A stretch of 64,000 nucleotides of DNA from positions 864,001 to 928,000 of the forward strand of contig CBDASK010000003.1 in the NCBI GenBank assembly GCA_965199495.1, written 5' to 3'. This stretch comes from Abditibacterium sp. (lineage in GTDB: Bacteria; Armatimonadota; Abditibacteriia; Abditibacteriales; Abditibacteriaceae). The notes beneath the pieces are model-generated. The model saw only the letters and a list, made by a program, of their open reading frames with translations. It had not been told where the DNA came from and did no database searches. Shown piece after piece: positions 2,518 through 62,195 of this stretch. Both the position numbers and the translations under genes were made by a program. How positions within the stretch are numbered: position 1 is the first letter of the stretch; the number at the start of each line of letters is the position of its first letter.

Positions 2518-3519
2518 ATGATTTTTCTGCTTCTGTTTGTTTTGGGCACGCTCGTCGGATCGTTTCTCAACGTGTGCATCTGGCGGCTACCGCGCGGCGA
2601 AAGCGTGGTCGCACCGCCTTCGCACTGCCCGACTTGCAACACGCGATTGACTTTGCTCGATTTGTTTCCCCTCGTTTCGCAGCTTTATCTGCGCGGCAAA
2701 TGCCGCTACTGCGGCGCGAAATTTAGCTGGCGTTATGCGGGCATCGAGTTTACGACCGGAGTTTTATTCGCCCTCGTCGCGATTCAGGCGGGCAACGTGA
2801 GCGATTTCACTTTCTTCGCGTCGTGGACGGGCGATACCGTCCATTTGCTGCGCGATTTAATTTTCATGTCCACGCTTACCGTCGTGTTCTGGGTGGATTA
2901 CGATACGCGCTTGATCCAACTCGAATCGGTGTTGTTGATGGGATTGGCGGGATTGAGCTACGAAGGTTATCGCGCGTGGCAAAGCGCCGATGCGACGACG
3001 ATTTTAACGGACGGTAAAATCATTGCGAGTTTACTTCCCGCTCCGGTTCCCGAATCTATCTTGGCGGCGGTTGTGACGGCGGGCGGACTATGGTTGCTGC
3101 GCGAGGCGTTCACCCGATTGTATGGGCGCGAGGCGATGGGACTGGGCGACGTTTTGTTGGTGGCGGCGATTGCGCCTTATTTGGGTTGGAGCGCGCTGAT
3201 CGTCACGTTTTTGTTTTTGGCTTCGGTGCTGGGCGCGCTGATTGGAACGGCGTTTCAAATTCCGCGCGCGCTGCGGGCTTATCGTTGGGCCAAAAATCGG
3301 CAGAGGCGTTATGGCGGCGATGATTGGTCAAAACCGTTGCTACGCCGGTCGTTGCGGGCGGCGATGCCGTTTGGGCCGATGCTCGCCATTGGCGCCGTGG
3401 CTGCATTGCTGTTTGGGCCGCAAATTAATCAGGCTTACTGGAATTTGGTGATGCCAGAACCAGCCACGCCGCTCACGCTAATGAGCCACTGCCGCGAGTT
3501 GGTCGCGGGTTTGCTTTGA
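2518..3519 (+). CDS. pilD: Prepilin peptidase/N-methyltransferase (A24)
   Basis: GSFLNVCIWRLPR, two CxxC motifs (SHCPTC, KCRYC), MGLGD and PFGPML; multiple TM segments. Confidence 0.93.
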   Translation: MIFLLLFVLGTLVGSFLNVCIWRLPRGESVVAPPSHCPTCNTRLTLLDLFPLVSQLYLRGKCRYCGAKFSWRYAGIEFTTGVLFALVAIQAGNVSDFTFFASWTGDTVHLLRDLIFMSTLTVVFWVDYDTRLIQLESVLLMGLAGLSYEGYRAWQSADATTILTDGKIIASLLPAPVPESILAAVVTAGGLWLLREAFTRLYGREAMGLGDVLLVAAIAPYLGWSALIVTFLFLASVLGALIGTAFQIPRALRAYRWAKNRQRRYGGDDWSKPLLRRSLRAAMPFGPMLAIGAVAALLFGPQINQAYWNLVMPEPATPLTLMSHCRELVAGLL

Positions 3520-3670
3520 TAACTACACGATTTGCCGCGCCCGCACAGTTGAAGCGCAAAGGAAACGAGGTAAACTATGCGGCGTCTGTAATAAGTATTA
3601 CGCCACGAATGGTTCACGCTTGATTTGTGGCAAAAGTCGGTTATTCACTCAATTGAAACGGAGCTTGTCC

Positions 3671-4546
3671 ATGAAAAAAACTGCAACACCGCGCCACGGC
3701 GCCTTCACTCTGGTCGAGATGTTGGTCGTCATCGCCATTATCGGCATTTTGGCGGCGATTCTCTTCCCGGCTCTTTCGCGCGCGCAAGAGAGCGCTCGCC
3801 AGACCAACTGCGCCTCCAATCTCAACCAGATTTACACCGCAGTCAGCCTGTATAAACAAGACACGCGCCACTATCCCGATTCGCTGGTTGACCTGTTGCC
3901 CGAAGGCGTCAAAATTGACGACGGCACCGCGATTCCCCCCGCCGCACCCGTCGAAGTGGAGATTGTCAAAGGCACGGGATACCTCAAGGGTGGCCTCGAC
4001 TCCTTGCGTTGTCCAGACGATGATCTGGATGTCACGCATTCGTCCTATGGAGCTTTAACCAAGAAAGTTGACACACCGGATGCCACGAAATTGACGGCGA
4101 TGCCGGGACGCTACGTTTTCAACTATTATGGTTACCGAAAAGACGGATTCGCGTTAGCCGGGCCAACAGAAGTCGCCGCCGAAGCGGGCACACAGACCGG
4201 GACTCCCGCCAGTTACGCGCTTTTGGTTAATCCAACGCAACCCTATAATGCGGCGTATCCCTTGCAAAATCCGGTGAAATATTCGCTTTCCAATCGTTTC
4301 GCGCCGTCTTCAACGATCATCACGCACTGCGTTTATCATCGGCCCAGCACAGCCAACGATTTGAAGTTGTCAACCGATTTGTATCAGACACCCACGCCGA
4401 TTGCGGGCGATGGCACTGGCGCGCGCGACATCATTTTGCGCGCGGATGGAACCGTCAAAGCGACGGATGTTTCGGCTCCGTTGTGGAATGTGGGAGATAC
4501 AACTATCACCCCGAACAAGCTGCCGTTGTGGCAACTTCAACAATAG
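3671..4546 (+). CDS. Prepilin-type N-terminal cleavage/methylation protein (DUF1559-like pilin)
   Basis: GA|FTLVEMLVVIAIIGILAAILFP..ARQTNCASNLNQI; C-terminal THCVYHR and ILRADGTVK; ATG 3671 after GGAG. Confidence 0.85.
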   Translation: MKKTATPRHGAFTLVEMLVVIAIIGILAAILFPALSRAQESARQTNCASNLNQIYTAVSLYKQDTRHYPDSLVDLLPEGVKIDDGTAIPPAAPVEVEIVKGTGYLKGGLDSLRCPDDDLDVTHSSYGALTKKVDTPDATKLTAMPGRYVFNYYGYRKDGFALAGPTEVAAEAGTQTGTPASYALLVNPTQPYNAAYPLQNPVKYSLSNRFAPSSTIITHCVYHRPSTANDLKLSTDLYQTPTPIAGDGTGARDIILRADGTVKATDVSAPLWNVGDTTITPNKLPLWQLQQ

Positions 4547-4591
4547 AGCCACCGCGTCTTCCAACCCTTTCATTTCCAACCTCCCACTCGC

Positions 4592-6448
4592 ATGAATTCA
4601 ATGCAATCCCGTTCTTCCCGTCAAGGCTTTAGCCTGATCGAAGTGGCCATCGCTATGGTGATTTTTCTCATCGGAGCGCTCGCCATTATCAAGATTTTTC
4701 CGGGCGCATTGAACGTCATCGGCAACAACGGCGATCAACAGATCGCCATGAACCTCAACCGCGATGTGGGAGCGCGGTTAAAAACCGATGGCTCTGTGCC
4801 TGACGCGACTTTTAATATCGCGGTTAACAACGACGGCACCTTGCACTGGACGACAGAGAATAACACAGACCACACGGCGGATTATACCGCTCCAGCAACT
4901 CCACCAACTCCAACCACTATCGGTAACGAAGGTGATATTCCGGCATCAGTTCTCGGAATTCCCCGCTTCAACTTTTCATTGCCGACAACCAACGATATTG
5001 AGACTCAATCCAGCAATTCCGCGCTTTCGCGTTTTCGCGGCATCCTTGGCGAAAAATCCAAAGTTTTCAAGATCGGCACTGACTCATACGCAGAAACAGA
5101 GTTTCCGATTTCCATTCAAGATGTCGGCGGAACTCCCACACCTCTGCCTCCGACGATTAGCCAAGAATATATCGTTCGTAACGCGCGCATAGACAAACAA
5201 GGCCGAGTGTCCTTCAAGGATGCGACAGCAGACATCGCGGGGCAGCAAGTTCGTCTGGATGATCCGGCGAATGCTCCCAGAGACGGTTTAAACGACAAGT
5301 CCATGCTTTATATTAGCTATCGCTACTTTGGCAATAGCGGCAAGATTTGGGGCGTGAGTGAGGAAGCCGTTCCAGTGGGAGCGATAACTTTGACGGATAC
5401 GGCAACAAACGTTTCTGTGAATCCGCCAACCACAACGCGCGGCGCCATCGTTGGTTACGATATAAACAGTCCAAATACGACGGGCACAGTAACGGAAGTT
5501 ATCAGTGTGCGCGTCAAAAGACTTGTTGGGCCGGGAGTATTTCCGGGCACTGATGACATATCAAGAGCCACCGCCGCGCGTTGCGGTTTGATTCTGTTGC
5601 CCTCGACTATCACTACGGATACCGTCTCCATTGACTACGCGGCGGATTGGTCGTGGCTGTTGCAGAGAGCCACGTTGTCACTCACGCCCGATGAGGCACG
5701 CCCAGTCATAACCGATTACTCTTATCGACAGCTCGCGCTCGGCGCGCCCTTTATTGAAGATCAAGTTCCTTACGGCGTTTATTCAATTTTGCAAGATCCA
5801 AACGATACGGCGAATCCGCTTTACGCATCGCAATTTGGAACAAGCAAAACCAATCCAGACCCGATGGCTAATAACAGCGGTTTGATGACTCCGATAGAAA
5901 GTGAACTGCGGTCGGGTAAGCTCACTTTCTCGGTGAAAAACCCACCTGTTCCTCCTATTGCGGACACGGAACCAAAAGCGCGCGTGGCTTATAAAACGCG
6001 CGATAGTTGGGCGCAACAACTCTCGGTGGCTGCTAATTCTTACAAGCCGTTTGTTGAAGCGACCACGACCTTCACCCCTGCTGAACCTTGGCGCGATTAT
6101 TATTTGGGCGACGACAATTACATCTACTTCTACGCGAGTGAAGCGGGCAAAACAGTGAATGTTTCTTATACATTAGCGACGCCAACGGGCGACAAACCCA
6201 TCGTGGAACGGCCATTTGTGATTGACCAGCAAATTATTGATACGCCCTCAGGCGTTTCCACCTCATTTACTGATTCAAAGAAAGTCTCACGCGCGCAGTT
6301 GACGAACTTTGCTGGTAGCTTTCTTACGACGGCTGAGTTGGTTTCGATTCAAGCCGTCCAAGGCAACAGCGTGACGATGCGCACGGCTTATATCAACGGC
6401 AATAAATATGCGCAGACTTTGCTGACCAGCAATCGAGGAACGAACTAA
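4592..6448 (+). CDS. Large minor pilin-like protein (PilV-like N-terminus)
   Basis: QG|FSLIEVAIAMVIFLIGALAII class III signal; 618 aa Thr/Pro-rich, likely extracellular body. Confidence 0.8.
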   Translation: MNSMQSRSSRQGFSLIEVAIAMVIFLIGALAIIKIFPGALNVIGNNGDQQIAMNLNRDVGARLKTDGSVPDATFNIAVNNDGTLHWTTENNTDHTADYTAPATPPTPTTIGNEGDIPASVLGIPRFNFSLPTTNDIETQSSNSALSRFRGILGEKSKVFKIGTDSYAETEFPISIQDVGGTPTPLPPTISQEYIVRNARIDKQGRVSFKDATADIAGQQVRLDDPANAPRDGLNDKSMLYISYRYFGNSGKIWGVSEEAVPVGAITLTDTATNVSVNPPTTTRGAIVGYDINSPNTTGTVTEVISVRVKRLVGPGVFPGTDDISRATAARCGLILLPSTITTDTVSIDYAADWSWLLQRATLSLTPDEARPVITDYSYRQLALGAPFIEDQVPYGVYSILQDPNDTANPLYASQFGTSKTNPDPMANNSGLMTPIESELRSGKLTFSVKNPPVPPIADTEPKARVAYKTRDSWAQQLSVAANSYKPFVEATTTFTPAEPWRDYYLGDDNYIYFYASEAGKTVNVSYTLATPTGDKPIVERPFVIDQQIIDTPSGVSTSFTDSKKVSRAQLTNFAGSFLTTAELVSIQAVQGNSVTMRTAYINGNKYAQTLLTSNRGTN

Positions 6449-7398
6449 TGAACCACCACAATTCACGCGCTCGCAAGGGCGGCTTTACACTCATCGAAAT
6501 CATCGTGGTGCTCATTATCGTCACAATAATTTCTTCGATTATTTTTTCGGCGTTCAAATCTATTCGCGAAGGTAATAAAAAGACTTCGTGTCAGGGCAAT
6601 ATGGCGCAGATTTATCAGGCGCTCCGGCTTTACGGACAAGATTATAACGGCGAATTCCCTTCGTATAATCCGGTCAAACCCGATGGGACGGGAATGGTAG
6701 AAGACCGCGCGCCTGCGGGTTTAGGTTTGTGGGCGCTCTATGCGTATCCGGCCTCGAAGGAATTGGATTGCGATGGTCGCACAACGCAGTTGCCGACGAC
6801 GGAACCTGCAGCGGATAGCGTCAACAAAACGCCGCCATTAGCTTCTTATGTGCGGTCGCCCAAGATATTCCATTGTCCCTTCGATGATTACGATCATCCA
6901 GCCACGCCGAGCGCGGGCTGTAACATGGATGCCACGGCAAAGCTTAATTCGAGTCAGATGACGTTCACCGACAAAGCGAATTTGGTGCGTTTCAATCCGT
7001 ATTACAATTCCTATCAGACCGCCGATGACGTGCCGACAGGTGCAAGCGCGCTTGACAGAGCAACTTACTCGTCTTTCCGCACAGCGGATTCCAGTCGCCA
7101 GTTGGTCTATTACAAACAGCAAGTCACTCCGTCGGGTATTAATCCGCAACGGCGCACGCCCGACACCACAATTTTGTTCTGGTGCCGCTTTCATCGCAGA
7201 CTTGACACAACTGGCTCCACGAAGGATCCGAATAATCTTTCTAACTCCGACAACGTGTTGTTTATGGATGGCACGGTGCAATATCTGCCGACTCGGCAAG
7301 ACATCGGCACCAGCACTGGCGCCAACGCCTGTCAGGCATGGACGAGAGCGCCGCTTGAAACCGTGGGAAGCATTCCGAGTTGTCCCAATGGAAGCTAA
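6448..7398 (+). CDS. Prepilin-type protein (DUF1559-like, H-X9-DG-type C-terminus)
   Basis: GG|FTLIEIIVVL, SCQGNMAQI, FHCPFD, FWCRFHR and NVLFMDGTV; start overlaps the upstream stop (TAATG). Confidence 0.85.
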   Translation: MNHHNSRARKGGFTLIEIIVVLIIVTIISSIIFSAFKSIREGNKKTSCQGNMAQIYQALRLYGQDYNGEFPSYNPVKPDGTGMVEDRAPAGLGLWALYAYPASKELDCDGRTTQLPTTEPAADSVNKTPPLASYVRSPKIFHCPFDDYDHPATPSAGCNMDATAKLNSSQMTFTDKANLVRFNPYYNSYQTADDVPTGASALDRATYSSFRTADSSRQLVYYKQQVTPSGINPQRRTPDTTILFWCRFHRRLDTTGSTKDPNNLSNSDNVLFMDGTVQYLPTRQDIGTSTGANACQAWTRAPLETVGSIPSCPNGS

Positions 7399-7436
7399 TT
7401 CGACATCCGATATTTTATTTACGACCCCGCAACATC

Positions 7437-8591
7437 ATGACTAACCGCCACATTTCGCACCGACGTTCTCGTCAATCTCATCGCGCCTTTACGATCATTG
7501 AGATGATGGTCGCGCTCGGCATCTTGGCGATTTTGTTGGTCATCATCGTTTTGCCATTGCGCCTGGGTTTCGACTCGTTCAACGCGGGCAACGCGCGCTC
7601 GCTCACGCAAAGTTCGCTCGACTCAACGATGACGCAATTCGAGATGGATTTCCGCAACGCGGTTTACATCATCCCCAACGCGCCTGTGGCTGGTGTTACC
7701 AACAAAGAACCCTACACAACGGCGAACAATCCCAGTGGATTTCCCTATTATCTTTCGACCGATAACACGGACATCAAGGAACCCGGTAAGGGTGCGGCGG
7801 GTGTGCCCAACGGTATCGCGTGTTCGACCAGCTCTGAGCATTGGGCGAATACTTCGACGATTAGCATGATTCAAGTGCGTCGTGATGATAGTGGCAACGT
7901 GCTAACGCCGTTGGCGCCTTCGTATAATATCGTCACGTACTACGCGCGCCGCGCGCAGTTAGATAAGGACTACGATCCGATTGATAATCCGGTTGTGATG
8001 TATCGCGCCGAGTATCCGGCATTTGCCCCCAAGGGCACGGATCCCGATTCTCCACCCGCCCCTCTTTTCGTTCAATCCCCAACTGGAGCCTATAACGCGA
8101 AGGTTGATTTTAAACGTATTACCAGTGGGGACTCCGCTTGCACGACGGATGCGGCGTTGGTCAACCGTTCGGCGCTGTGGCTGAGCCATAATTATCTTGG
8201 CGAGGCCGATCTGTTGCCGCTCACTCGAATCGGAAAAGCGGGGACACCCGTCGAATTTACTCCGGCGACTGGCTACAGCCTCAAAGATTCAACCTATTCG
8301 CATACTCTGGCGATTCCACGCGGATTGGCGCTGGCTGTATCGAACGGCTTTCGTGCCGTGCCCAATTACGTGCCGGTGGCTCCAGAAACAAGGGACGCCA
8401 AAGCATCGTTGGTGCCCGACACGACATTTATCTGTGCCGACTCCAATGGCGATGGAAAAATTGATCGGATCACGATTTCGCTGGCGCTGGCTTCGTTTAG
8501 TGTGGGTGCGCAGGGCGAATTGAAAAATAATCAGCCCGTCGGCACCGTGCTACGAGCCACGCGCACAGTCAACTTGCCCAACATCCAGTAA
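7437..8591 (+). CDS. Minor pilin-like protein (PilW-like)
   Basis: RA|FTIIEMMVALGILAILL signal; DSNGDGKID Ca-binding-like motif near the C-terminus. Confidence 0.8.
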   Translation: MTNRHISHRRSRQSHRAFTIIEMMVALGILAILLVIIVLPLRLGFDSFNAGNARSLTQSSLDSTMTQFEMDFRNAVYIIPNAPVAGVTNKEPYTTANNPSGFPYYLSTDNTDIKEPGKGAAGVPNGIACSTSSEHWANTSTISMIQVRRDDSGNVLTPLAPSYNIVTYYARRAQLDKDYDPIDNPVVMYRAEYPAFAPKGTDPDSPPAPLFVQSPTGAYNAKVDFKRITSGDSACTTDAALVNRSALWLSHNYLGEADLLPLTRIGKAGTPVEFTPATGYSLKDSTYSHTLAIPRGLALAVSNGFRAVPNYVPVAPETRDAKASLVPDTTFICADSNGDGKIDRITISLALASFSVGAQGELKNNQPVGTVLRATRTVNLPNIQ

Positions 8592-8693
8592 TTTGCGCGT
8601 GATGCCAGCCAAAAGCATCTCGTTTTAGTGCGTTCTTCCCTTGCAGTGAGGAACAAACGTTCCATCTCCTCAAGTCTGAGGAGGATTTCCATC

Positions 8694-11600
8694 ATGAAAA
8701 GCCGTTTTCTTCTGCCCTCCAATTTGCCCGAAACTCATCACGCTCCAGATGCGCGACCCAAGGCTTCGCTTGCGCGGCGTTTTGAGTTGCGATACAACGT
8801 CTCGCCTCGTTTCGCGCGTCGCCGTCAACAGCGGCGCCAAGGTCAGGCGCTGTTGCTGGCGGTTTTGATCATGTTGCTCGCCGCTTTGCTGAGCGCGGGC
8901 TTTTTGGCGGTCGTGTCGGGCAACTTGAACCAGACGGCGCGCATCGCCGACAAAACCAAAGCCATCGAAGCCTCGCGCGCCGGAATTGTCTTCGCCAATG
9001 AGCAACTGTCGGGCAGCGCACAGGGCGATTTGTGGCGCCCGATTGATGTCAGCCCGGCGCCCAATACGACCGATGCGTCTTACGACTTTTATTACTCGCA
9101 ACTCGACAAAGCCCAGGGCTGGGCGGCCAAACGCCAGCCGCTACCGGGCGACGGCTTTCCCAACACCGATTACAATGTCCCGACTTATGGCGAAGCCGCA
9201 GCGATTTATCATTCGGACACTTACGCCAAGTTTCCCGCGCCCGACCAGCCCAGCAGTGACGCGCCCAAGTTTTTAGTGCGCGTGCAGGAAATCCCAATTT
9301 TACTGCCCAACGATCCCAACTACAACGCGGAAGAAGCCAAGCACGCGGGCGAACTAAAAATCACCTCCATCGGTTTGTCCGACGATGATCCAAACGTTTT
9401 TCATACTTCGATTGCCTATAAAAATGGACGACGCAAATCGCCGTGGGCCAGCGCACTGCGCTCGATTTCCAACTGGAATTTTGGAGCTAACAACACCGCT
9501 GTTGGTGTGCCTTACGCGACTGTTCTCGAACCTGTTACGGTCAATATGCCCACGAATAACGTGGCCGTTCAAGTCAATACTACAAATACCCCTTTGTTTT
9601 CAAAAGACGACTTGCCTACTAACGTTGTTCTCGTCAACAAGGCCGCCTCTCCTCCCACGGTGCGCGGCGCGGTTATCACCGACATCGGGCCGCCAGCGAC
9701 AACTCCGCCCACAGGTTCAACCGCAGCCACATTCAAATTCGCCCAATTGGACGCGCCAATTGACAAGAACGAAGTCGTCCAAAAAGCGGCGGCGATTGGC
9801 ACAGGCTTGAACATTGATTTGCTTAATACGGGAACGCCAACTGCTGTGGCAGCAAATTTTCCGAATTATGATCAACCCAATGGCATTTTGGCAAACGGTA
9901 GTCTGTGGTTGCAAAATCAGGTTCAACTCTCAAATTTGAGTAAATTTGGCACAAAGCTATTTGTTTCCGGTTCTCTGGCCATTGATGATAGCGCGTCTAC
10001 AGTCAACAAAGTTGTTTTGCCGGGTGGCGATGTAGGGACATCTCCAGGTGGCAATACGATCGTGCCATCGAATGTGAATTATCCCGGTAATAACATCGTG
10101 TTGACGGCGGCAGCGACCTCGGATGGCGTAAAAACGACCGACTTCGTCAACGATGGCTGGAACAAAATCGGCGCGCAAACTTTGGGATTGGATTATTCCA
10201 CCACGCGCGATGTCGAACCGTTTACTCCCGCCAAAATTGATAGCGCCACTAACTTGGAGCGTTATCGTTCGCTCACGCGCAACCCGTCCGATGGCGTTTA
10301 TATAGACAATCGCGATGATATTGAAAAAGTCAGCGACAACGCCTCAGCAATGCCGCCGACGTTCAAGGCGATGACCCAAGCGCAATTGGTTGAAATGTTG
10401 ACCTCGCCTCCACCAATTCCGCCAGCAACAGTGCCGACGGATTACACGCGCACGGGCACAGCCACGACGATGGCTGGAGCTTCATTGGAACAGCGCCATT
10501 TGCGCGGTTGGGTTGGCCCCGACGAATTCATGGCGCGCGGCGCCCTCGTCGAACTGATTCAGGCGCCGAACGCCAATCCCTACTTGCGCCTGACTTACGA
10601 TTCGCGCAGCGATGCGAGTTTTAATGGCTCCGATGCAACGAAGACTTTTCGTGACGCGAGCGGCAACCTTTTGCCCGGTGTCTACACGGAAAATCTGCCG
10701 TGGCCCAAAAACGGCATTCTCTTCGCCGAAGGCAATCTGCGTATTCGCGGGCAAGTCAACCTTTCTAATCTGACGATGGGCACAGACCCTAACGAGTTCC
10801 CTTCGCTAACTGTAGTTTCGCTGGGTAACATTTATATCGAAGGCCCGCTTTCAGTGGACAGAACCGATACGATGGGCAACGTTATTCCCGTGGCAAATCG
10901 CAAAAAGTTGATGTTACTGGCCAAAAAGAACGTCATCGTTAATCCCACGCGGGCCATTATGTCGCGTCTGGACACCCAGACCTTAACCAGCGGCACCGCG
11001 ACAGTCACGCCCGGAACGCTGCCAGCTCTCAATACGATCCAGATTCCCGTAAATAACGTTACCGGTTTTGAGCAAGGCGATTATATCGTCGCTGCGGGAA
11101 CTCCCAATCAAATCCGTGGCGTTGTGACAGCGGTTACCCCCATTACCAACAGCCCTGCGGGCACCATTGATGTGCAAACGCAGGATACAGGCGCAATTGG
11201 TGTGAACGCTCTGGTGCTTTCGCCGCTGGAAACCAGAGCGAGCGTTGGGACAGCTCCTAACTCCACGTTTTTCTCGCAAGTCACAGCGGTCAACGCGGTC
11301 AATCGCCGCATTCCTCTGGCTCCTGCGGCCTCCCCGAAATATCGCCTGGCGATGGATCACAGTGGCCAAAGGGTAACGGCTTTGCAAGTCAAAATAAAAG
11401 ATTTGCCATCGGACGCCGACACCTTCAATATTTTTCTTTCCAACAAGCGAAACCTGGATACCAACGGATTGTTTCAGGCGAATTTGGCAACCATAGATAC
11501 TGCAAACAAAAAGGTTCGCGTTGACTATGACGGGCCATCTCCTGCGGGCGTGGATGAATTTCCTCAAACGTACCCTACGACGCAGTCTGCAGCCGACGGC

Positions 11601-12728
11601 TTCAACATCGCAGCTTTGGAAGCGGAGATGAATGCGAAAACACATCCGGGAACGCCTCCGCCACCCAGTCCGCCGGGCTGGCAATACGATGTAACGCCAC
11701 CTTCAGCCACAAATGGAACTCTGCCGTTCTATTATTTGGCGGGTGTTGGTTTAAGTAACGCCTCCGGCGTGGCTTATACCAATACCAACGACTGGCGCAA
11801 GAAATTGACGACCACAGCGACATTTGATATTCCTCTGGCGAATTCCTTTGAGTTCGATCTCAATGGATTGGAACAAGGGCACTTTGGATTCAATCCCGAC
11901 TTCTTGGCCCCGACGGACTTACTCACGGTGGATGAATCCTTCTATCAGGCGGATACCGATGTCAGCAAAAATAGCACTTTGGATAGCCGCGCCTTGACAG
12001 GAACTTTGCCTCTGCAAAACGTCGTTTTGCGCCAGTCGCCGCAATTGTTTCTCAATACTCTGCCCGCTCCGCAACCGACTTTACCCGATGAACGGATGCG
12101 CGCGATGAAACTGGAAAACATAGATTTGACTGGGGCAACGCCGGTTATCCGGCCTTTTACAGATGCGATGAACATAGACGCGTTCGTCTACGCCCAAGAG
12201 GGCAGTTGGCTGGTTATCCCTGGAGACTACTTCCGCTCCACATCTCCGGTGCGCTCCGAAGTCGATGCCAGTGGAGCGGCCATTGGAACGTACATTGACT
12301 TCACACCTAACAATCAGCCCGATGCGGGCGAGTTCATTCTTGATACGAGTGTCACACCCAATGTCAAAGTTGCCGACCTCAATCGTAACGGTATCGTTGA
12401 TCCGGGCGAAAAAGAAGCGGCGCTTCGTTTCGTGAGATATAACGACTTTCAAATCCAATTCACCGGCGCCATCGTCGAAAATCAAACGCCGGTCGTCGCC
12501 GACATAAAATTGGCCAGCGCTCCACCAAATACGCCTCCTCTTGTGACAGGCGCCGTTCAAGATTGGATGGATAAGTGGGTGGCTTACGATAGCACTTCCG
12601 CCGGAACGGCTGCAGATCCCAAATGGAAATTTATCAATTACGTTTACGATCCGTCGATCGCCAACAATAGCCTTGGAGCAAATCAACTTCGGGTGCCCAT
12701 CACCGACGATTTGATTTACCAACAGTAG
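8694..12728 (+). CDS. Giant PilX/GspK-like pilus-associated protein, paralogue 1
   Basis: GAGGAGG RBS; RRQG|QALLLAVLIMLL prepilin-like signal lacking Glu5; C-terminal DLNRNGIVDPGE motif. Confidence 0.75.
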   Translation: MKSRFLLPSNLPETHHAPDARPKASLARRFELRYNVSPRFARRRQQRRQGQALLLAVLIMLLAALLSAGFLAVVSGNLNQTARIADKTKAIEASRAGIVFANEQLSGSAQGDLWRPIDVSPAPNTTDASYDFYYSQLDKAQGWAAKRQPLPGDGFPNTDYNVPTYGEAAAIYHSDTYAKFPAPDQPSSDAPKFLVRVQEIPILLPNDPNYNAEEAKHAGELKITSIGLSDDDPNVFHTSIAYKNGRRKSPWASALRSISNWNFGANNTAVGVPYATVLEPVTVNMPTNNVAVQVNTTNTPLFSKDDLPTNVVLVNKAASPPTVRGAVITDIGPPATTPPTGSTAATFKFAQLDAPIDKNEVVQKAAAIGTGLNIDLLNTGTPTAVAANFPNYDQPNGILANGSLWLQNQVQLSNLSKFGTKLFVSGSLAIDDSASTVNKVVLPGGDVGTSPGGNTIVPSNVNYPGNNIVLTAAATSDGVKTTDFVNDGWNKIGAQTLGLDYSTTRDVEPFTPAKIDSATNLERYRSLTRNPSDGVYIDNRDDIEKVSDNASAMPPTFKAMTQAQLVEMLTSPPPIPPATVPTDYTRTGTATTMAGASLEQRHLRGWVGPDEFMARGALVELIQAPNANPYLRLTYDSRSDASFNGSDATKTFRDASGNLLPGVYTENLPWPKNGILFAEGNLRIRGQVNLSNLTMGTDPNEFPSLTVVSLGNIYIEGPLSVDRTDTMGNVIPVANRKKLMLLAKKNVIVNPTRAIMSRLDTQTLTSGTATVTPGTLPALNTIQIPVNNVTGFEQGDYIVAAGTPNQIRGVVTAVTPITNSPAGTIDVQTQDTGAIGVNALVLSPLETRASVGTAPNSTFFSQVTAVNAVNRRIPLAPAASPKYRLAMDHSGQRVTALQVKIKDLPSDADTFNIFLSNKRNLDTNGLFQANLATIDTANKKVRVDYDGPSPAGVDEFPQTYPTTQSAADGFNIAALEAEMNAKTHPGTPPPPSPPGWQYDVTPPSATNGTLPFYYLAGVGLSNASGVAYTNTNDWRKKLTTTATFDIPLANSFEFDLNGLEQGHFGFNPDFLAPTDLLTVDESFYQADTDVSKNSTLDSRALTGTLPLQNVVLRQSPQLFLNTLPAPQPTLPDERMRAMKLENIDLTGATPVIRPFTDAMNIDAFVYAQEGSWLVIPGDYFRSTSPVRSEVDASGAAIGTYIDFTPNNQPDAGEFILDTSVTPNVKVADLNRNGIVDPGEKEAALRFVRYNDFQIQFTGAIVENQTPVVADIKLASAPPNTPPLVTGAVQDWMDKWVAYDSTSAGTAADPKWKFINYVYDPSIANNSLGANQLRVPITDDLIYQQ

Positions 12729-12740
12729 ATTAATTCCACG

Positions 12741-12775
12741 CAAAAAAGACCGCAGCAGTGCTGCGGTCTTTTTTG
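12741..12775. terminator. Bidirectional terminator between the two PilX-like genes
   Basis: CAAAAAAGACCGCAGCA-G-TGCTGCGGTCTTTTTTG. Confidence 0.85.
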
Positions 12776-12861
12776 CATTCTGTATCTGAGCCATAATGCG
12801 TAAAACACTATAAATTTTTCCGTTGACACCTGAAAAATCCCGCGACCCGCCTATTGACAAC

Positions 12862-12890
12862 TTGCAAACAGCATTAAATATTCATAAAAT
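12862..12890 (+). promoter_or_regulatory. Putative sigma70 promoter of PilX-like paralogue 2
   Basis: TTGCAA-N17-TAAAAT in an AT-rich intergenic region; TTGACA also nearby. Confidence 0.4.
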
Positions 12891-12976
12891 TAAGCGCGCA
12901 AAAAGAAGGTACGTTGACCCACAATCTGGCGCTCTGAAGGAGCCAATAGTTCCCAGACGCGATAAGGATTTCACCC

Positions 12977-23451: not shown

Positions 23452-23630
23452 GATGTCGCAGTAGATTTTACGATATTAAGGCGGGAGCGTTCGATTCGGA
23501 CAGCGTGTAGCTGACTATTTTGGTGTTTACAAACCTCGCGTTTTGCCGTATTGAAAAGTTTGCGGTAAAATTATGGGCGTCCTGCGGCGTTGTTCCGCGA
23601 ACAAGATCAAAGTGTTGAGTTTCAATCGAA

Positions 23631-24029: not shown

Positions 24030-24081
24030 CACAAGGCAGGAGATGCGACATAGAAGTTGATAATGGGGAAAATCCACTACC

Positions 24082-24690: not shown

Positions 24691-24799
24691 GAGTGACGCA
24701 AAACTCCGCATCAAATCCCAAAAAGCAGTCCAAAGTCGTGTGATTGCGCGCAACTTGACCTGTGTTGCGTTTGTTGCATTCCTACTGAGAACATCAAAA

Positions 24800-25444: not shown

Positions 25445-25464
25445 ACCGCCAATATTCACGAACC

Positions 25465-25804: not shown

Positions 25805-25824
25805 CCTCCGATTATACTTATCGA

Positions 25825-26010: not shown

Positions 26011-26018
26011 GAAAAACC

Positions 26019-50274: not shown

Positions 50275-50731
50275 ATGATGCGCACGCGCTCAACGCCGCC
50301 AAAGTGCGGACGTGATTCCAAATCATCCACGCGCCATAAAACGAAGCCCACGCCGTGGCTGCATCGGGCGCGTCGGGTTTTAAAGTCGCCAACGCATCGT
50401 TGAGCGGCACGTTTCCCCCTGCCGTTACGCCAAAGGTGCCGATCAAATAAAGCGCGCACCCGACCAGCAGCCACGCCGCATTGGGTTGTTTCCATCCGAC
50501 AAATGCCAGAACGAGCGACAACAGCGCCGTGCCCATAAAAACCAGCATGAATAGCGGGTTGATGACGGCGAGGTTGATGCTTTGCATCGCGGCGATGGCT
50601 TGCGGCGCGGGCAGGCGCTTGAGCGCGGGCATCACGAAGACCGAAAACGCGAAGAACGTTCCGGCCATCAGAGCGCAACCCAGCGCGACAGCGAGTTTGG
50701 CGGCGAAAAGCCAGCGGTCGAGCGAGGACAT
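50252..50731 (-). CDS. DUF1772/anthrone oxygenase-family membrane protein
   Basis: AGTFFAFS.FVMPAL..AMQSIN..NVPLND.L..WNHVRT. Confidence 0.85.
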   Translation of the reverse strand: MSSLDRWLFAAKLAVALGCALMAGTFFAFSVFVMPALKRLPAPQAIAAMQSINLAVINPLFMLVFMGTALLSLVLAFVGWKQPNAAWLLVGCALYLIGTFGVTAGGNVPLNDALATLKPDAPDAATAWASFYGAWMIWNHVRTLAALSACASFIISLVK

Positions 50732-52376: not shown

Positions 52377-53339
52377 CTACGAAAACTTAATGCGTGGATC
52401 GGTGACCGCCAGCAAAATATCGGCGACCAAGTTGCCCGCGATTAACAACAGCGTGCCCATCACGAACGAGGCCATCGCGACATACAAATCGCTACTCTGC
52501 ACCGATTCGAGCAATAGACGCCCCAATCCCGGCCATGCCATCACGTTTTCGACCAAGGCAGAACCCGCCAAAAGTCCCGATAATTCGTAGCCAAATAAAG
52601 TAATCAACGGGTTAATCGAGTTGCGCACCGCGTGTTTCCATACGACTTTGCGTTCGCTGAGGCCGCGCGCGCGCGCCGCCAAAATATAATTTTCGCCCAG
52701 CACTTCCAGAGTGTTGCCGCGCATCTGGCGCATCAGACCAGCCACGCCGCGCGTGCCCAGCACCAAAACCGGCAAAATCAAGTGCCAGCCGGTGTCCTTG
52801 ATTTTATCAATTTGTGACATCGCTTCGTAGCCAATCGAAGTCGCGCCGCCCACGGGAAAATAGCCGTGTTCCGAAGCGAACTTCATCGCCAGCAATGCCA
52901 CGAAAAATCCCGGCAACGAAATGCCCGCAAACGCCAAAAAATTGGCCGCCCGATCCGCGAAACCGTTGCGATGGCGCGCGATGTAAACGCCCAGAGGAAT
53001 TGCCACGACCCACGCCAAAATCGTTGCCCACAACGACAAAATGAAGGTGTAATAAAGCCGTTGCTTTATCAGCGTGACTGCCTCGATTTTATAGCGAAAC
53101 GAGTAACCGAAATCGCCGTGCAGCGCGTTCCACAGCCAGCGCCCATATTGCACGTAAAGCGGCTGATCGAGGCCGAAACTTTTGCGCAGACTTTCAATAG
53201 TTTCGGGCCGAATCGTCGGCTGGCCGCGCAAAGTATCGAGGTAATCCGGCCCCAGTTGCATTACGCCAAACGACAGCACCGTTACGGCGAGCAAAAGTGG
53301 GATGAGCTGTAAAAGTCGGCGGAGAATAAAACGTTTCAT
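52377..53339 (-). CDS. Peptide ABC transporter permease (DppB/OppB family)
   Basis: FILRRL, GLDQP..QY..W, YILAARARGL and DPRI. Confidence 0.92.
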   Translation of the reverse strand: MKRFILRRLLQLIPLLLAVTVLSFGVMQLGPDYLDTLRGQPTIRPETIESLRKSFGLDQPLYVQYGRWLWNALHGDFGYSFRYKIEAVTLIKQRLYYTFILSLWATILAWVVAIPLGVYIARHRNGFADRAANFLAFAGISLPGFFVALLAMKFASEHGYFPVGGATSIGYEAMSQIDKIKDTGWHLILPVLVLGTRGVAGLMRQMRGNTLEVLGENYILAARARGLSERKVVWKHAVRNSINPLITLFGYELSGLLAGSALVENVMAWPGLGRLLLESVQSSDLYVAMASFVMGTLLLIAGNLVADILLAVTDPRIKFS

Positions 53340-56489: not shown

Positions 56490-57488
56490 ATGAATTCTTC
56501 CCTTCCACTCTCGCTGGTTCCCGACTTTGATTTGCCCGATGGTTCGCGCGCCTCGCATTGGCGCGGGCGTCCACTGATTGTCGCGTTTGCGCCCGACGAC
56601 TGGAATCCGGCGCGCGCGCAGCAAAACGAAATTTGGCATCAGTTGGCGGCGCAGTTTGGTGCCGAAATCGTGGACACCTCCTCCGACGACTGGCACGCCT
56701 TTGACAGCCACGGCGAGACGGCGATGCGTTTTGGCGTGCGCGGGCAACGCGCCATTTTCGTCATTGACGAAAATGGCCAAATCGCCTGGCAGTGGAAATC
56801 GGACGGCGAAGAGGTCGCGCCCGGCGAAGTGTTGGCGGCTTTGGAAAAGTTGGATGTGACCGAAAAACGCGGCGCTTTGTCGCGCCGCTCGTTTTTGGCG
56901 GCGACGTTGGCGGCGAGCGCGGTTTTGGCGCTTTCGGGTCGCGGCGCACTCGCGCGCAACCAGAACGAACTGACGCCGCCCGCGCCGGGCGAAGCGCGCT
57001 TCAAATCGAGCGATTCCTACGACAAAACCGATACGATTCCGGTGAAGTTGCGCGTCAACGGCAAAGTTCGCACGCTGCAAATCGAGTCGCGCGTGGCGCT
57101 TTTGGACGCGTTACGCGAATACATCGGTTTGACCGGCAGCAAAAAAGGCTGCGATCACGGTCAGTGCGGCGCCTGCACCGTTCATATTGATGGCGAGCGC
57201 CAACTGTCGTGTTTAACGCTGGCGGTCATGGCGCAGGGCCGCGAAATCACCACCATCGAAGGTTTGTCGCAGGGCGAGAACTTGCATCCGATGCAAATGG
57301 CGTTCGTGCAAAACGATGCGTTTCAATGCGGTTATTGCACGCCGGGCCAAATCATGTCGGCGGTCGCGCTGCAACGCGAGGGAGGCGACGGCTCGGACGC
57401 CCAAATCCGCGAAGGCATGAGCGGAAATTTGTGTCGTTGCGCCGCGTATCCCAACATTGTGGCAGCGATCAAAGCGGCGCGTGCGTAA
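56490..57488 (+). CDS. Redoxin-like domain fused to a PaoA/YagT-like 2Fe-2S subunit
   Basis: C-terminal GSKKGCDHGQCGACT, FQCGYCTPGQ and NLCRC; internal SRRSFL Tat-like motif; N-terminal RAIFVIDENGQIAW. Confidence 0.85.
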   Translation: MNSSLPLSLVPDFDLPDGSRASHWRGRPLIVAFAPDDWNPARAQQNEIWHQLAAQFGAEIVDTSSDDWHAFDSHGETAMRFGVRGQRAIFVIDENGQIAWQWKSDGEEVAPGEVLAALEKLDVTEKRGALSRRSFLAATLAASAVLALSGRGALARNQNELTPPAPGEARFKSSDSYDKTDTIPVKLRVNGKVRTLQIESRVALLDALREYIGLTGSKKGCDHGQCGACTVHIDGERQLSCLTLAVMAQGREITTIEGLSQGENLHPMQMAFVQNDAFQCGYCTPGQIMSAVALQREGGDGSDAQIREGMSGNLCRCAAYPNIVAAIKAARA

Positions 57489-57563: not shown

Positions 57564-58601
57564 ATGAAACCCTTCAAATACCAGCGCGCTCAGAGCTTCG
57601 ATGCAGCCACGGCGCAAGCGTTGGGCGATGGCGGCCTCGATTTCGTCGCGGGCGGCACCACGCAAATTGACCTGATGAAAGAGAACGTGATGCAGCCCAA
57701 CGTGTTGCTCGATCTCAACCCGATTTTGTCGCGCGACATCATCACGCGTGAGGGCGGTTTACGCATCGGCGCGGGCGTGTCCAATACGGCGGCGGCTCAC
57801 CATCCCGAAATCGTGGGCCGCTATCCCGGTTTGTCCGAGGCGATTTTGGCGGGCGCGTCGGGCCAAATCCGCAACATGGCGACGATGGGCGGCAACGTTT
57901 TGCAAAAAACGCGCTGTCCTTATTATCGCGATACCGCCCTGCCCTGCAACAAACGCGAGCCGGGTTCGGGTTGCGGCGCCATCGGCGGCATCAACGCCAA
58001 TCACGCGATTTTCGGCGGCAGTCCCGAATGTATCAAGCTCTATCAGGGCGATATGGCCGTGATGCTAAGCGCGCTCGACGCCATCGTGCAAACGCGTTTG
58101 CCGAGCGGCGCGCGCTCGATCAAGATGCCCGATTTGCATCGTCTGCCGGGCGATACACCGCAATTCGACACGATTTTGCAGCCGGGCGAAATCATCACTT
58201 TTATAGATTTGCCCGCGTTTTCGGGCCGCTCGCATTATCTCAAAGTGCGCGACCGCGCCAGCTACGCCTACGCGCGCGTGAGTTGCGCCGTCGCGATGGA
58301 ATTGCAGGGCGAGAAAATCAAAAGCGCGCGCATCGCGCTGGGCAGCGTCGCGCCCAAACCGTGGCGCGCCACGCAAGCCGAAGCGATGTTAGCTGGCCAA
58401 ACGCCGACCGAAGAACTCTTTCGCGAAGCCGCCCGCGCCGCGTTCGCCGACGCCAAACCGTTGGAATACAACGCTTACAAAGTGCCGCTGGGCCAAAACG
58501 TCATGGTGCGATGCCTGATGGAAACCAGTGGATTGATGCCATTGCAGGGAAAATCCGGCACCGTCTTCGCTTCCAGCGTCGGCGCCGTGGCTGGCATGTG
58601 A
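57564..58601 (+). CDS. PaoB/YagS-like FAD-binding subunit
   Basis: AGGTTQIDLMK, GASGQIRNMAT.GGN.LQ.TRC.YYRD and YLKVRDRASY. Confidence 0.9.
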   Translation: MKPFKYQRAQSFDAATAQALGDGGLDFVAGGTTQIDLMKENVMQPNVLLDLNPILSRDIITREGGLRIGAGVSNTAAAHHPEIVGRYPGLSEAILAGASGQIRNMATMGGNVLQKTRCPYYRDTALPCNKREPGSGCGAIGGINANHAIFGGSPECIKLYQGDMAVMLSALDAIVQTRLPSGARSIKMPDLHRLPGDTPQFDTILQPGEIITFIDLPAFSGRSHYLKVRDRASYAYARVSCAVAMELQGEKIKSARIALGSVAPKPWRATQAEAMLAGQTPTEELFREAARAAFADAKPLEYNAYKVPLGQNVMVRCLMETSGLMPLQGKSGTVFASSVGAVAGM

Positions 58602-58719: not shown

Positions 58720-59703
58720 ATGCACGAACGCACTGCAATTCTCGACTTGTGGAATGCCGCTCATGCCGCCGAAATTGACGCGGCGTTGGCGACGGTCGTC
58801 GAAGTCAAAGGCTCGGCCTATCGCCGCGCGGGCGCGCGCATGATTTTGACAAATGATGGGCGCAGTGCGGGCATTCTCAACGGCGGCTGTTTGGACGCCG
58901 ATTTGTGGATTCGCGCACGGCAAGCGATGGAAAGCGGGCGCGCGCAGTTAGCGATTTATGACACGCAATCTTCGCAAGATATTGTTTTCGGATTGGGTTT
59001 GGGTTGTCGCGGCGTGGTCAAAATTTTGATCGAACCCATCGAAAATCTCGATTGGCTACGCGACGACGCCGTCGCCGTGGCTGCATTCGAGGACGAGTTA
59101 GAATTGGGCACGCGCGCCGGAGACGACGAATTCGTCGGGCGCCCGCAAATCATCGCGACCGCGACGGGACGCGCGTTCATCGAACGATTGGAGGCGCCGC
59201 AACCGTTAATCATTTTTGGCGCGGGCGCCGACGCGGTGCCGCTCGCGCAGATGGTCGAATTGTTGGGCTGGAACGTGCAAATCGTTGATCCGCGCGCGCC
59301 GCATTCAGAGCGCCCAGTTCACTTGCCCAACGCGCGATATGTGGCATCCGAACGGTTGGGCGAACTTCAAATTCCGGCGCGCGCGGCGTGCGTTTTGATG
59401 ACGCATAACTTTTTGCACGATCTCGAAATTTTGAAACGCTTGTTGCCATCGAACGCGAGTTACATCGGATTGTTGGGGCCGCGCCGCCGCGCCGATGAAC
59501 TGTTGGAAAAGTTGAACGAAGAAACTTTATCGCCGGGCATAGCAGCCACGGCGGAGCAGTTGGCGAAGTTGCACGCGCCAATTGGCCTCGACATCGGCGC
59601 CGAAACGCCCGCCGAGATCGCTCTGGCGATTGTCGCGGAAATCCAGAAAATTCGGCGCGCCAAAAGCGGCGCGAGCCTACGAGAGTTGAACGCGATTCAT
59701 TGA
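58720..59703 (+). CDS. XdhC/PaoD-family molybdenum cofactor insertion chaperone
   Basis: GSAYRRAGARM, GGCL, GLGCRG, YIGLLGP and PIGLDIGAETPAEIAL. Confidence 0.9.
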   Translation: MHERTAILDLWNAAHAAEIDAALATVVEVKGSAYRRAGARMILTNDGRSAGILNGGCLDADLWIRARQAMESGRAQLAIYDTQSSQDIVFGLGLGCRGVVKILIEPIENLDWLRDDAVAVAAFEDELELGTRAGDDEFVGRPQIIATATGRAFIERLEAPQPLIIFGAGADAVPLAQMVELLGWNVQIVDPRAPHSERPVHLPNARYVASERLGELQIPARAACVLMTHNFLHDLEILKRLLPSNASYIGLLGPRRRADELLEKLNEETLSPGIAATAEQLAKLHAPIGLDIGAETPAEIALAIVAEIQKIRRAKSGASLRELNAIH

Positions 59704-59705
59704 GT

Positions 59706-59879
59706 GTGAGGCGTTTAGCCCCCTCCCCAGCCCTCTCCCGGAACGGGGGAGGGAACACCCACTCGGAGTTATGATTTGTTTCAACTAACTTCAAGTTAGT
59801 TGAACCTAACTAAAACCTGCTCGAACGTGCTCCCTCTCCCGGAACGGGGGAGGGCTGGGGAGGGGGCTAAACGCCTCAC
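59706..59879. repeat. Inverted repeat of the CCCCTCCCCAGCCCTCTCCC...GGGGAGGG family
   Basis: Outer 29-bp arms are perfect (59706-59734 / 59851-59879); each unit has an internal hairpin. Confidence 0.8.
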
Positions 59880-59899
59880 CACAAAAAACCAAAATTATC

Positions 59900-62195
59900 A
59901 TGTCAAACATCATCGGCCAGCCCGTAACGCGCCAAGATGCCAAATTGAAAGTCACCGGCAACGCCAAGTATTCCGCCGAATTCGCCTTGCCCAATCTGGC
60001 GTATGCCGTTTTGGTCACATCGCCCGTCGGACGCGGCACCATTCGGGGTTTCGACTTGACTGCGGCCCAGGCGGCGACGGGCGTGATTCGGATAATTACG
60101 CACGAGAACACGCCAAAATTGCGCGCGATTGACCCCAAAAGCGCCGGGGAAGCCAAGGCTTCGTTTGGCGAATTTCTGCTGCCGTTTCAAAGTCCCGACA
60201 TCGTTTATAACGGTCAGGCCATCGCGATTGTTGTGGCCGACACCTACGAGCGAGCGCGCTGGGCCGCCAGTTTGGTCAAAGCCGACATCGAAGTTTTGGA
60301 GCCTTCAACAACGTTGCACGATGCGCCTGTTATAGAGCAGCCCAAAGGCAATCGCGCGCAATCGCAACGCGGCAAACCCGCCGAAACTTTCGCGGCGAGC
60401 GCCCAGAAAATGGACGAAACCTATGTGACGCCCTATGAGCATCACAACCCGCTGGAGCCGCACGCGAATCTGGCTTATTTCGAGCCAAACGGCGATTTGA
60501 CGGTGTATCAATCGAGCCAATCCACATCGGGGCCGCAAGCGACTTTGGCTTACGTTTTCGAGTTGGACAAAGACAAAGTGCGCATCATCAATCACTTTAC
60601 TGGCGGCGGTTTCGGTTGCAAAGGCGCGGGCGCGTGGCAACACGACACCGCCTGTGTTTTGGCGGCGCGCGAAACCAAACGTCCGGTCAAATTGGCGCTG
60701 ATGCGCCAGCAGATGTTCGCGGGCGTCGGGCACCGGGGCAAGTGCGAAATGGACGTGCAAATCGGCACAAATGACGCGGGCGCCATCGAAATGCTGGGCC
60801 AGAAAACGCTAACGCAAAGCCACAAAGATCAGCCGTCATTTTTTGAGTCCGCCGGAATAATGTCGCGCGTGATGTATCGCGCCCCCAACTACGAAATGGG
60901 GCACACGGTCGCGCGCAACAACATTTCGCCGCCGACTTATATGCGCGCCCGGCGAGGCGCCCGGCTCGTTCGCTTTGGAATGCGCCATTGACGAAATGGC
61001 GCATCAAGTCGGCATTGATCCGATTGAATTTCGTTTGCAAAATTACGCGCAAACCGATCCCGAATCGGGTCTGCCGTGGTCGAGCAAACAGTTGGCGCAG
61101 TGCTATGCGAACGGCGCGCGACTCATCGGTTGGGACGCACGCGCGATGCAGCCACGGGCGCGGCGCGAAGGGCGTTATTTGATCGGCTACGGCATGGCCT
61201 CAGCGACCTATCCGGGCAACCGTTCGCCCGCCGCCGCACAGTGCCGACTTTACGCCGATGGCCGCGCCGTGGCTGGCAGCAACGGCGTGGATATTGGAAC
61301 GGGCGCCTACACGATTTTCCGCCAAGTCGCCGCCGCGACTTTGGGTTATCCGCTCGAAAACGTGATTTTTGAACTGGGCGATTCCAAACTGCCCTATGCT
61401 CCGGTCGCGGGCGGCTCACAACTTTCGGCCAGCGTCGCGCCCGCCGTTGCGCAGGCGTGCGAATTGGTTTTGGCCGAAGTTGTCAAATTGGCGGTTGCCG
61501 ACCCGAAATCGGCGGTCTACGGGCGTCCACTCGAAGCCGTCCAACTGCGCGATGGCTTGATTATGCCGCAGGGCGAACCGCTCAAAGGCGAGCCGGTGAA
61601 AGACGTGATTCGGCGGAGCGGCCAACCGTTCGTCGAAGCGTGTTGCCGCGCCGAAACGATGGGAAGCGCCAAGGGCAACGAAGGTTTGAAGCAGCAAAAT
61701 AACGCGCCCTGCAACGTAGCCACGCCGGAACCCGAAACCGATCAGAACAAGGCGAAATACGCGTTTCACTCGTTCGCCTCGCAGTTTTGCAAGTTGCGTG
61801 TGGACGAAGAATTGGGCACAATTCGACTTCTGGATTGGGCGACCGTCGTGGATGTCGGTCGCATTTTGAACAAGCGCACGGCGCGCTCGCAAATGCTCGG
61901 CGGCATCGGTTTCGGCATCGGCATGGCACTCTGCGAAGAGACGCTTTACGATCCGCCGACCGCGCGCCCGGTCATTCGCAATCTGGCCGATTATCACGTC
62001 GCCGTCAACGCCGATGTGCCGCGCATTCAGGTCGAATTCATTGACACGCCCGACCCGCACATCAACAGTTTGGGCTGTCGCGGCATCGGCGAAATTGGCA
62101 TCGTCGGCGTGGCTGCTGCCATCGCCAACGCCGTGTTCAACGCGACGGGCAAACGGTTGCGCGAACTGCCGCTCACGCCGGATAAGTTTGTGTAA
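59900..62195 (+). CDS. PaoC/YagR-like molybdopterin-binding subunit, frameshifted near 60950 (pseudogene or sequence error)
   Basis: KVTG.A.Y, GGGFGCKG, DIGTGAYT and GIGEIGIVG; the conserved MRAPGE is restored by adding 2 nt in ATGCGCGCCC. Confidence 0.85.

Follow-up and report, generated by a model that had tools for sequence, protein, structure and literature searches.

What is the role of a short, asymmetric DNA word that recurs throughout the chromosome of a bacterium from a lineage for which no such signal has been described? The question is raised by a stretch of 64,000 nucleotides from Abditibacterium sp. (assembly GCA_965199495.1, contig CBDASK010000003.1, positions 864,001 to 928,000; hereafter the window), which corresponds to C3:864001-928000 of the genome that we call G000 (4.81 Mb in three contigs, 55.7% GC, 95% complete). 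An initial annotation made from the letters of the window had singled out the dispersed 9-mer GCAGCCACG as a candidate signal akin to the DNA uptake sequences (DUS) of Neisseriaceae and the uptake signal sequences (USS) of Pasteurellaceae. The underlying observation is confirmed and in fact stronger than first reported. All 28 copies of the 9-mer lie exactly where they had been placed, 14 on each strand, while 100 dinucleotide-preserving shuffles of the window contain a mean of 0.84 and a maximum of 4, and ATGCAGCCACG is indeed present 11 times with 0.04 copies expected. The 7-mer core AGCCACG/CGTGGCT had been estimated at about 65 copies; its abundance is real, though the count is 71 (8.0 expected, shuffle maximum 17), forming a field of sites on both strands from 3393 to 62924 that covers genes as well as spacers and includes, besides the 28 9-mers, 31 copies of the full form CAGCCACGBCG (0.19 expected). 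The GC content of the window, put at about 57% for the original estimate, is about 55%. To us, the chance that this motif acts as a self-DNA signal of the DUS/USS kind, connected with transformation or recombination in a single clade of Abditibacterium, is nearly though not quite even.

A sharply defined word of the chromosome

Across G000, the 9-mer occurs 1783 times (919 copies on the plus and 864 on the minus strand) and the core 4553 times (2263 and 2290, respectively), with about 2,100 to 4,500 genomic copies of the full-form word in 4.8 Mb, and the commonest 10-, 11-, 12- and 13-mers of the whole genome all include the motif. When the 4553 core sites are aligned, their consensus reads a-G-C-AGCCACG-(G/C/T)-C-G, an asymmetric word whose informative flank is the 3' side, where GCG, CCG or TCG follows 74% of genomic 9-mers; the 5' AT that had been taken for an extension precedes only 19% of them. 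The perfect 12-mer GCAGCCACGGCG is found 690 times and nearly all of its single substitutions at positions 3 to 9 and 11 to 12 have 0 to 27 copies, while position 10 tolerates C (357 copies) and T (276) in place of G (690) but hardly A (27). This sharp near-miss spectrum would fit a protein reader of about 11 specified bases. That three independent assemblies (of 3, 360 and 8 contigs) contain the word makes an assembly artefact unlikely. A short non-palindromic word of about one copy per kilobase and equal abundance on both strands conforms to the DUS/USS type and not to a palindrome of the kind called highly iterated palindrome 1 (HIP1; GCGATCGC).

The same spectrum looks as if near-misses were actively converted, as it would if the word were a by-product of DNA modification or repair, with the word or part of it being the target of a methyltransferase or some other modification system whose linked mismatch correction turns near-misses into the word, a process that has been suggested for HIP1-like words. 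HIP1 provides a precedent: According to the accessible parts of the respective reports, this hyper-abundant cyanobacterial word is hypothesised to be an uptake recognition sequence (PMC13756078) and has been tied to two methylases and to methylation-dependent transformation (PMC13756078; bioRxiv 10.1101/2024.09.10.611283). Both HIP1 and the Abditibacterium motif are hyper-abundant, conserved and quasi-periodic in-gene words of one lineage, but HIP1 is palindromic, connected to its two methylases and phylum-wide, whereas the word studied here is asymmetric, not known to be modified and confined to a clade below the genus level. Targets of modification are usually shorter than its asymmetric array of about 11 specified positions, and repair of a duplex word should not make only sites of the same orientation avoid each other in the way described further below. 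We therefore regard an origin through modification or repair as improbable.

The initial annotation had argued that the motif lies in different reading frames and hence is no codon or peptide effect, of which the conclusion stands while the premise of frame independence does not. With genes called by a rough, home-made scorer of open reading frames (ORFs) that returned 3679 ORFs covering 85.3% of the G000 genome, approximately 92% of core sites (4183 of 4553) fall into called genes, and while all six frames are used, 3022 of the 4183 occupy just two of them, sense xxA-GCC-ACG and antisense xxC-GTG-GCT. This frame preference is real but does not explain the excess because synonymous-codon shuffles fall far short of it. 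Over 30 such shuffles within each of the called genes, the 9-mer reached a mean of 96 copies compared to 1642 observed (17x), the 11-mer CAGCCACGNCG 60 compared to 2025 (34x) and the 12-mer 8.7 compared to 636 (73x). The excess thus survives codon-preserving nulls, and a codon or peptide artefact is ruled out.

The word is also a property of the chromosome rather than of all DNA in the cell. The 9-mer has a density of 0.377/kb on the chromosome and only control-level densities on the plasmid contig C1 (0.041/kb; 1 copy in 24.7 kb with ca. 9 expected at chromosomal density) and the phage contig C2 (0.031/kb; 2 copies in 64.6 kb with ca. 24 expected). C1 is a mobilisable plasmid with genes for RepA, a MobA/MobL relaxase, a TraG/TrwB-like coupling protein, ArdC and a resolvase, and C2 is a Mu-like phage encoding Gam, a Mu-type portal, an S49 protease and a 2400-aa tape-measure protein; a further ORF of this phage joins LAGLIDADG and papain-like domains. 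The longest motif-free stretches of the genome fall into three groups, located at about 415-520 kb, 1125-1256 kb and 4220-4285 kb. Like DUS and USS, the motif is hence under-represented in mobile or recently acquired DNA, and the same is true of the low-GC insert in the window, for which the absence of the motif had been correctly recorded (zero core sites between 22717 and 26634).

Orientations of the word are mixed in every 100-kb bin of the chromosome and the GC skew is nearly flat, so that its polarity is neither that of Chi nor that of FtsK orienting polar sequences (KOPS), in agreement with the initial annotation; a replichore-polarised signal can be rejected on these grounds. KOPS and architecture-imparting sequences are likewise frequent, asymmetric and chromosome-wide, but such words are strongly co-oriented with replication.

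Clade restriction and origin in place

We screened 41 genomes, 13 of the genus and 28 from outside, using the reversed word as control. Only G000 (1783 copies), G011 (1411) and G004 (972), all of the same genus, rise above this control, while the other ten genus genomes and the 28 genomes from outside do not. The motif is thus present in related genomes as had been anticipated, though merely in a narrow clade of 3 of the 13. G011 shares the consensus of G000. Of the 349 core copies in 400 kb of G004 (contig C3, 200001-600000), 170 or about half reside (e.g., around 360,375-360,500) inside a family similar to repetitive extragenic palindromes (REPs) that is built from ca. 21-nt perfect hairpin arms with a GTAG head (CGACACCAGCCACGTCCTACG ... 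CGTAGGACGTGGCTGGTGTCG). This family embeds the 8-nt core of the motif, lies mostly between genes at about 1 per 2.5 kb and was once expanded into a tandem array with 7 or more 19-nt units. The remaining copies in G004 have the solitary in-gene form aGC-AGCCACG-nC(g/c) with T favoured at the variable position, a slight change of dialect. As a separate matter, the small contigs C1-C5 of G004 carry a CRISPR-like array with ca. 107 copies of one repeat that dominates their k-mer counts.

The hairpins of G004 resemble genuine REPs in that the core is part of a GTAG-headed perfect hairpin family, and they could be taken to mean that the word is made of remnants or half-sites of a mobile repeat of the REP or miniature inverted-repeat transposable element (MITE) type. 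We consider this very improbable for the motif at large and effectively refuted for G000, where a perfect 12-nt reverse-complement partner lies within ca. 60 nt of only 28 of the 4533 core sites on the chromosome and where sites are solitary, largely coding and made by substitution in orthologous codons. In addition, the REP-like element that G000 does have (CGTAGAGACACCGACTTGTCGTGTCTAAAACGT; 153 chromosome copies) differs in sequence and is unrelated to the motif, and G004 itself also carries the solitary in-gene form. Under the boldest reading given below, the hairpin family of G004 would be a mobile element that acquired the core, possibly so as to ride along with the signal.

How the sites arose is evident from comparison with congeners of ca. 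70% identity in which the positions orthologous to G000 sites hold ordinary sequence that is 1 to 5 substitutions away from the word, showing that the sites were made in place by substitution and not inserted. Once made, they are preserved. Between the sister species G000 and G011 (85.1% identity over 241 kb), 66% of the 11-mers of G000 and 81% of those of G011 are retained compared to 26.7% of arbitrary 11-nt windows, i.e., sites are kept 2.5 to 3 times better than arbitrary words. At the larger distance of G000 and G004 (79.8% over 228 kb), 42% of G004 sites are kept in G000 relative to a baseline of 18.5%, while only 16% of the more numerous sites of G000 are kept in G004. A three-way projection covers 25% of the window and 27 sites. 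Of these, 4 are ancestral and shared by all three genomes, 9 are common to G000 and G011 alone, 4 are private to G000 and 3 to G004, while losses number 3 in G011 and 4 in G000. Retention and three-way comparison together indicate that the word is maintained yet turns over in both directions.

Same-strand exclusion and possible readers

On average, core sites lie 1.0 kb and 11-mers 2.2 kb apart, with a depletion of gaps below 300 nt and above 3 kb, which is within the range given for DUS in the accessible text of a study that ties DUS spacing to the length of conversion tracts and finds DUS under-represented in strain-specific insertions (PMC2397512). Behind these averages lies a pronounced effect of orientation. 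Neighbouring core sites are of opposite orientation in 2799 cases and of the same orientation in 1733. For 11-mers of the same orientation, the ratio of observed to expected pairs is 0.10 at distances of 0-200 nt and climbs over 0.18 (200-400 nt), 0.30 (400-600 nt), 0.54 (600-800 nt), 0.71-0.77 (800-1400 nt) and 0.87 (1400-1800 nt) to about 1.1 beyond 1.8 kb, whereas for opposite orientations it is 0.98-1.38 throughout. Label permutation yields 92 +/- 7 same-orientation pairs at 30-400 nt (minimum 69 in 1000 permutations) where only 25 are observed, and among the 60 most frequent non-palindromic 7-mers AGCCACG scores 0.44 while the other 59 score 1.12-1.62. G011 replicates the effect more weakly (0.54-0.73 for same and 0.95-1.45 for opposite orientation below 800 nt). 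Sites of the same orientation therefore exclude each other to about 0.7-1.8 kb while sites of opposite orientation are independent, which implies a strand- or direction-specific reader. At close range, 121 pairs within 30 nt are inverted and 10 direct; these close inverted pairs are about 2-4x enriched, with an excess of 3-4x below 30 nt for the 9-mer and the 11-mer, prefer spacings of 11-14 and 15-16 nt and mostly lie inside ORF calls. Overlapping pairs in two discrete classes have also been described for the USS of H. influenzae in the part of the source available to us (PMC7811141).

A separate, evenly spaced series on each strand with exclusion over 0.7-1.8 kb would also be expected of a strand-specific signal for some intracellular DNA transaction that has nothing to do with gene exchange, such as replication or repair loading, priming, pausing or the binding of a nucleoid protein, that is needed about once per 1-2 kb per strand. 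The lengths of bacterial Okazaki fragments are similar to this range, and the almost flat GC skew would be compatible with a direction of replication that is not fixed. Yet a basic housekeeping role should not be limited to 3 of 13 species of one genus, and its individual sites should not be gained and lost between sister species. Furthermore, priming would gain nothing from sites on the template of the leading strand, and the signal should be required on a resident plasmid as well. We hence view this alternative as rather unlikely.

Orientation-dependent recognition is similarly inherent to a Chi-like signal, read on single-stranded DNA by an end-processing helicase-nuclease that is thereby switched from degradation to recombination, while DNA of plasmids or phages stays exposed. 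Chi sequences are over-represented, asymmetric, act in an orientation-dependent manner and mark chromosomal DNA as self, which would fit the per-strand exclusion and the absence of the word from plasmid and phage, the latter encoding a Mu Gam-like end-protection protein. A conceivable enzyme is the 1421-aa Dna2/Upf1-like helicase with an N-terminal PD-(D/E)XK nuclease domain that G000 encodes at C3:4111365-4117038 next to a bacterial type IB topoisomerase. Chi sites are, however, co-oriented with replication, 5-8 nt long and few-fold enriched, while the Abditibacterium word has no replichore skew, is much longer with its ca. 11 specified bases and is enriched far above such values (17-73x). 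The nucleases that read Chi were not found either: Profile searches of the 95% complete G000 genome gave no match to RecC (PF04257) and detected the PDDEXK_1 domain (PF12705) only in a 299-aa island ORF and in the Dna2-like superfamily 1 helicase, so that neither RecBCD nor AddAB appears as a reader. Taken together, a Chi-like function seems unlikely to us.

We favour a self-DNA signal of transformation or recombination because, in our assessment, uptake sequences as found in Neisseriaceae and Pasteurellaceae are the one known class that fits a sharp, asymmetric, non-polar, mostly genic, chromosome-only, lineage-restricted, substitution-made and conserved word. Like DUS and USS, it is a short asymmetric word (ca. 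10-12 nt in those systems) with thousands of copies, roughly one per kb, equally frequent on both strands and not polarised along the replichores, that lies within genes in favoured frames, is under-represented in mobile or strain-specific DNA, is lineage-specific, has a spacing in the range of conversion tracts and forms close inverted pairs at discrete distances. Under this reading, point substitutions would create the word in ordinary genes, where a force that acts on DNA as such would preserve it: Within the transformation or recombination pathway, a sequence-specific reader would favour incoming DNA that bears the word, word-bearing alleles would replace word-less ones by biased gene conversion, and the word would build up until roughly each recombination-sized tract has one. 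If this reader saw only one strand or direction, be it through single-strand reading during or after import or through directional threading, each strand would come to bear a regularly spaced series of its own. In the simplest picture, with the signal read on a single strand or as it is imported, a site would help only its own strand, a second site on the same strand within the tract would add nothing, and sites on the other strand would be invisible. What we infer here is the connection with transformation, the drive and the single-strand or directional reading. Going further, the motif might be a third independent invention of a self-DNA exchange signal, in a phylum for which there is no genetics, whose reader differs from a ComP-type pilin acting on the duplex in that it recognises one strand or one direction, with strand series spaced by the imported tract; we would call this bolder version conceivable but doubtful.

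Most computational checks favour a DUS/USS-like signal as initially proposed, though not those on terminators and on a pilin receptor in the window, and these belong to a series of points that weigh against it. To begin with, the observed features demonstrate a force at the level of DNA, not transformation as such. The expected enrichment between genes or at terminators is missing: Core density is 1.03/kb in coding sequence and about half of that in spacers (0.64/kb in convergent, 0.51/kb in tandem and 0.44/kb in divergent ones), although both frame and intergenic fractions are approximate because our gene calls are rough. By contrast, known uptake sequences are described in the accessible texts as being in excess in non-coding DNA and working irrespective of orientation (PMC1939737), with no effect of orientation on uptake and no orientation bias reported (PMC1939737, PMC2346458), so that both the low intergenic density and the orientation-dependent spacing set the Abditibacterium motif apart; per-strand exclusion is not reported in the DUS/USS papers that we examined. 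No hyper-abundant dispersed word of their own was found in 100 kb each of the motif-free congeners G012 and G002, which yielded only a coding tandem repeat and ordinary GC-rich words and thus speak against a genus-wide set of dialects as in Neisseriaceae.

The machinery adds further such points. As the initial annotation had suggested looking for, G000 has intact ComEC, DprA and a ComEA-like HHH protein (HHH_3) besides 8 secretin matches and pilus genes, but with ComEC present in 13 of 13 genus genomes these competence genes are found equally in motif-free congeners and do not discriminate; ComEC is accordingly rejected as a discriminator. Comparing ComEC and the pilus operon of the window across the genus revealed no clade-specific reader. 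The ComP_DUS domain (PF16732) has no match, which carries little weight since the control genomes are silent as well. Overall, the Abditibacterium motif differs from DUS and USS in its phylum (Armatimonadota/Abditibacteriota), in lacking a ComP_DUS match and intergenic or terminator enrichment, in being limited to 3 of 13 species of a genus instead of being family-wide and in the mutual exclusion of same-strand sites next to independent opposite-strand sites.

The pilus operon itself, which had been suspected to encode the receptor among its minor pilins, does not bear out this idea. It is a type IV pilus/type II secretion system-like operon on the plus strand (12..16963) with an ATPase, a platform protein, a prepilin peptidase, four large N-methyl pseudopilins and two giant proteins, and its pilins carry only the N_methyl domain without ComP_DUS. 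Homologues of its 618-aa pseudopilin (4592-6448) exist in 10 of 12 other genus genomes and of the giant protein in 11 of 12. A clade-specific operon is thus rejected, and being syntenic and conserved in motif-free congeners, the operon is no specific receptor candidate. The 618-aa pseudopilin evolves fast, with 57% amino acid identity to G011 and 47% to G004 at genome-wide nucleotide identities of 85% and 80%, respectively. The two giant proteins (8628-12728 and 12977-16963; 1366 and 1328 aa) are paralogues of 57% identity without Pfam match for which an Atlas look-up gave weak pilus-related leads, the best clusters having PilX_N or DUF4900 in 12-58% of members. Their tandem pair is found only in G000, G011 and G004, while motif-free congeners have one copy at the syntenic locus. 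Elsewhere, G000 has about 35 paralogous prepilin-like genes (190-270 aa) with FTLIELLVVIAIIAILAAILFPVFARARE as their common N-terminus, one cluster of which is found at 4.37-4.48 Mb.

If the preferred reading holds, its interest would lie in the rarity of such signals. According to the comparative literature that we searched, as far as its text was accessible, sequence-specific uptake signals are established in only two proteobacterial families, with HIP1 as a recent hypothesis; our searches on uptake sequences returned work on Neisseriaceae, Pasteurellaceae and HIP1 only, and the visible part of a recent preprint treats uptake enhancing sequences as a feature of Neisseriaceae and Pasteurellaceae (10.1101/2025.10.24.684340). 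Among the Abditibacterium papers listed, titles and abstract openings concern ecology, taxonomy or phylogeny, and the literature that we searched describes no uptake sequence for this lineage. A clean, young and clade-restricted case such as that of Abditibacterium would indicate a repeated and rapid emergence of self-tags, and since sister species with and without the word differ by only 15-30% in sequence, their gene contents could be compared, as in a natural experiment, to find the reader. Any mechanism has to account for the quantitative signature of per-strand exclusion, which can also be looked for directly in classical DUS and USS genomes: If absent there, the Abditibacterium system works differently, and if present, it has so far escaped notice and would be relevant to the long-standing debate of drive versus selection.

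Sites and neighbouring sequences in the window

Among the full-form sites of the window, those reading CAGCCACGGCG lie on the plus strand at 15300..15310, 39358..39368, 40334..40344, 56705..56715, 57604..57614 and 59543..59553 and on the minus strand at 3393..3403, 13051..13061, 36301..36311, 39870..39880, 50351..50361, 58583..58593, 59073..59083 and 61265..61275. The form CAGCCACGCCG is found at 3461..3471, 6899..6909, 15843..15853, 35820..35830, 38906..38916, 44842..44852, 50468..50478 and 52739..52749 on the plus strand and at 43082..43092 and 62105..62115 on the minus strand, while CAGCCACGTCG is present on the minus strand at 16732..16742, 29241..29251, 44360..44370 and 46994..47004. The core of the site at 16732..16742 is kept in both G011 and G004, whereas the cores at 35820..35830, 36301..36311, 50351..50361 and 50468..50478 are kept in G011 and absent in G004. 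Both inverted pairs of the initial annotation are real. One consists of two overlapping full-form sites of opposite orientation (19848..19867) that form a hairpin with an 8-bp stem and a 4-nt loop between ileS and lspA, and the other is the pair 14534/14566 inside the 1328-aa gene, of which the left arm is a full-form site on the plus strand (14535..14545).

The motif-free stretch at 22718..26633 spans the low-GC insert, whose four ORFs of 132-234 aa (23631-25911) have no Pfam match; ORFs of the Uma2 and zeta-toxin-like/AAA_33 types are found at its flank (26730-28369). The window also contains dispersed repeats of ca. 85-135 nt (about 19053-19150, 32190-32285, 39569-39653, 46058-46191 and 63776-63873) that match dozens of G011 contigs, mostly in both orientations, and probably are palindromic units of the MITE/REP type. 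Finally, AAAAGCGCGCGTTGCC / GGCAACGCGCGCTTTT is over-represented in the window as well, with about 10-20 copies.

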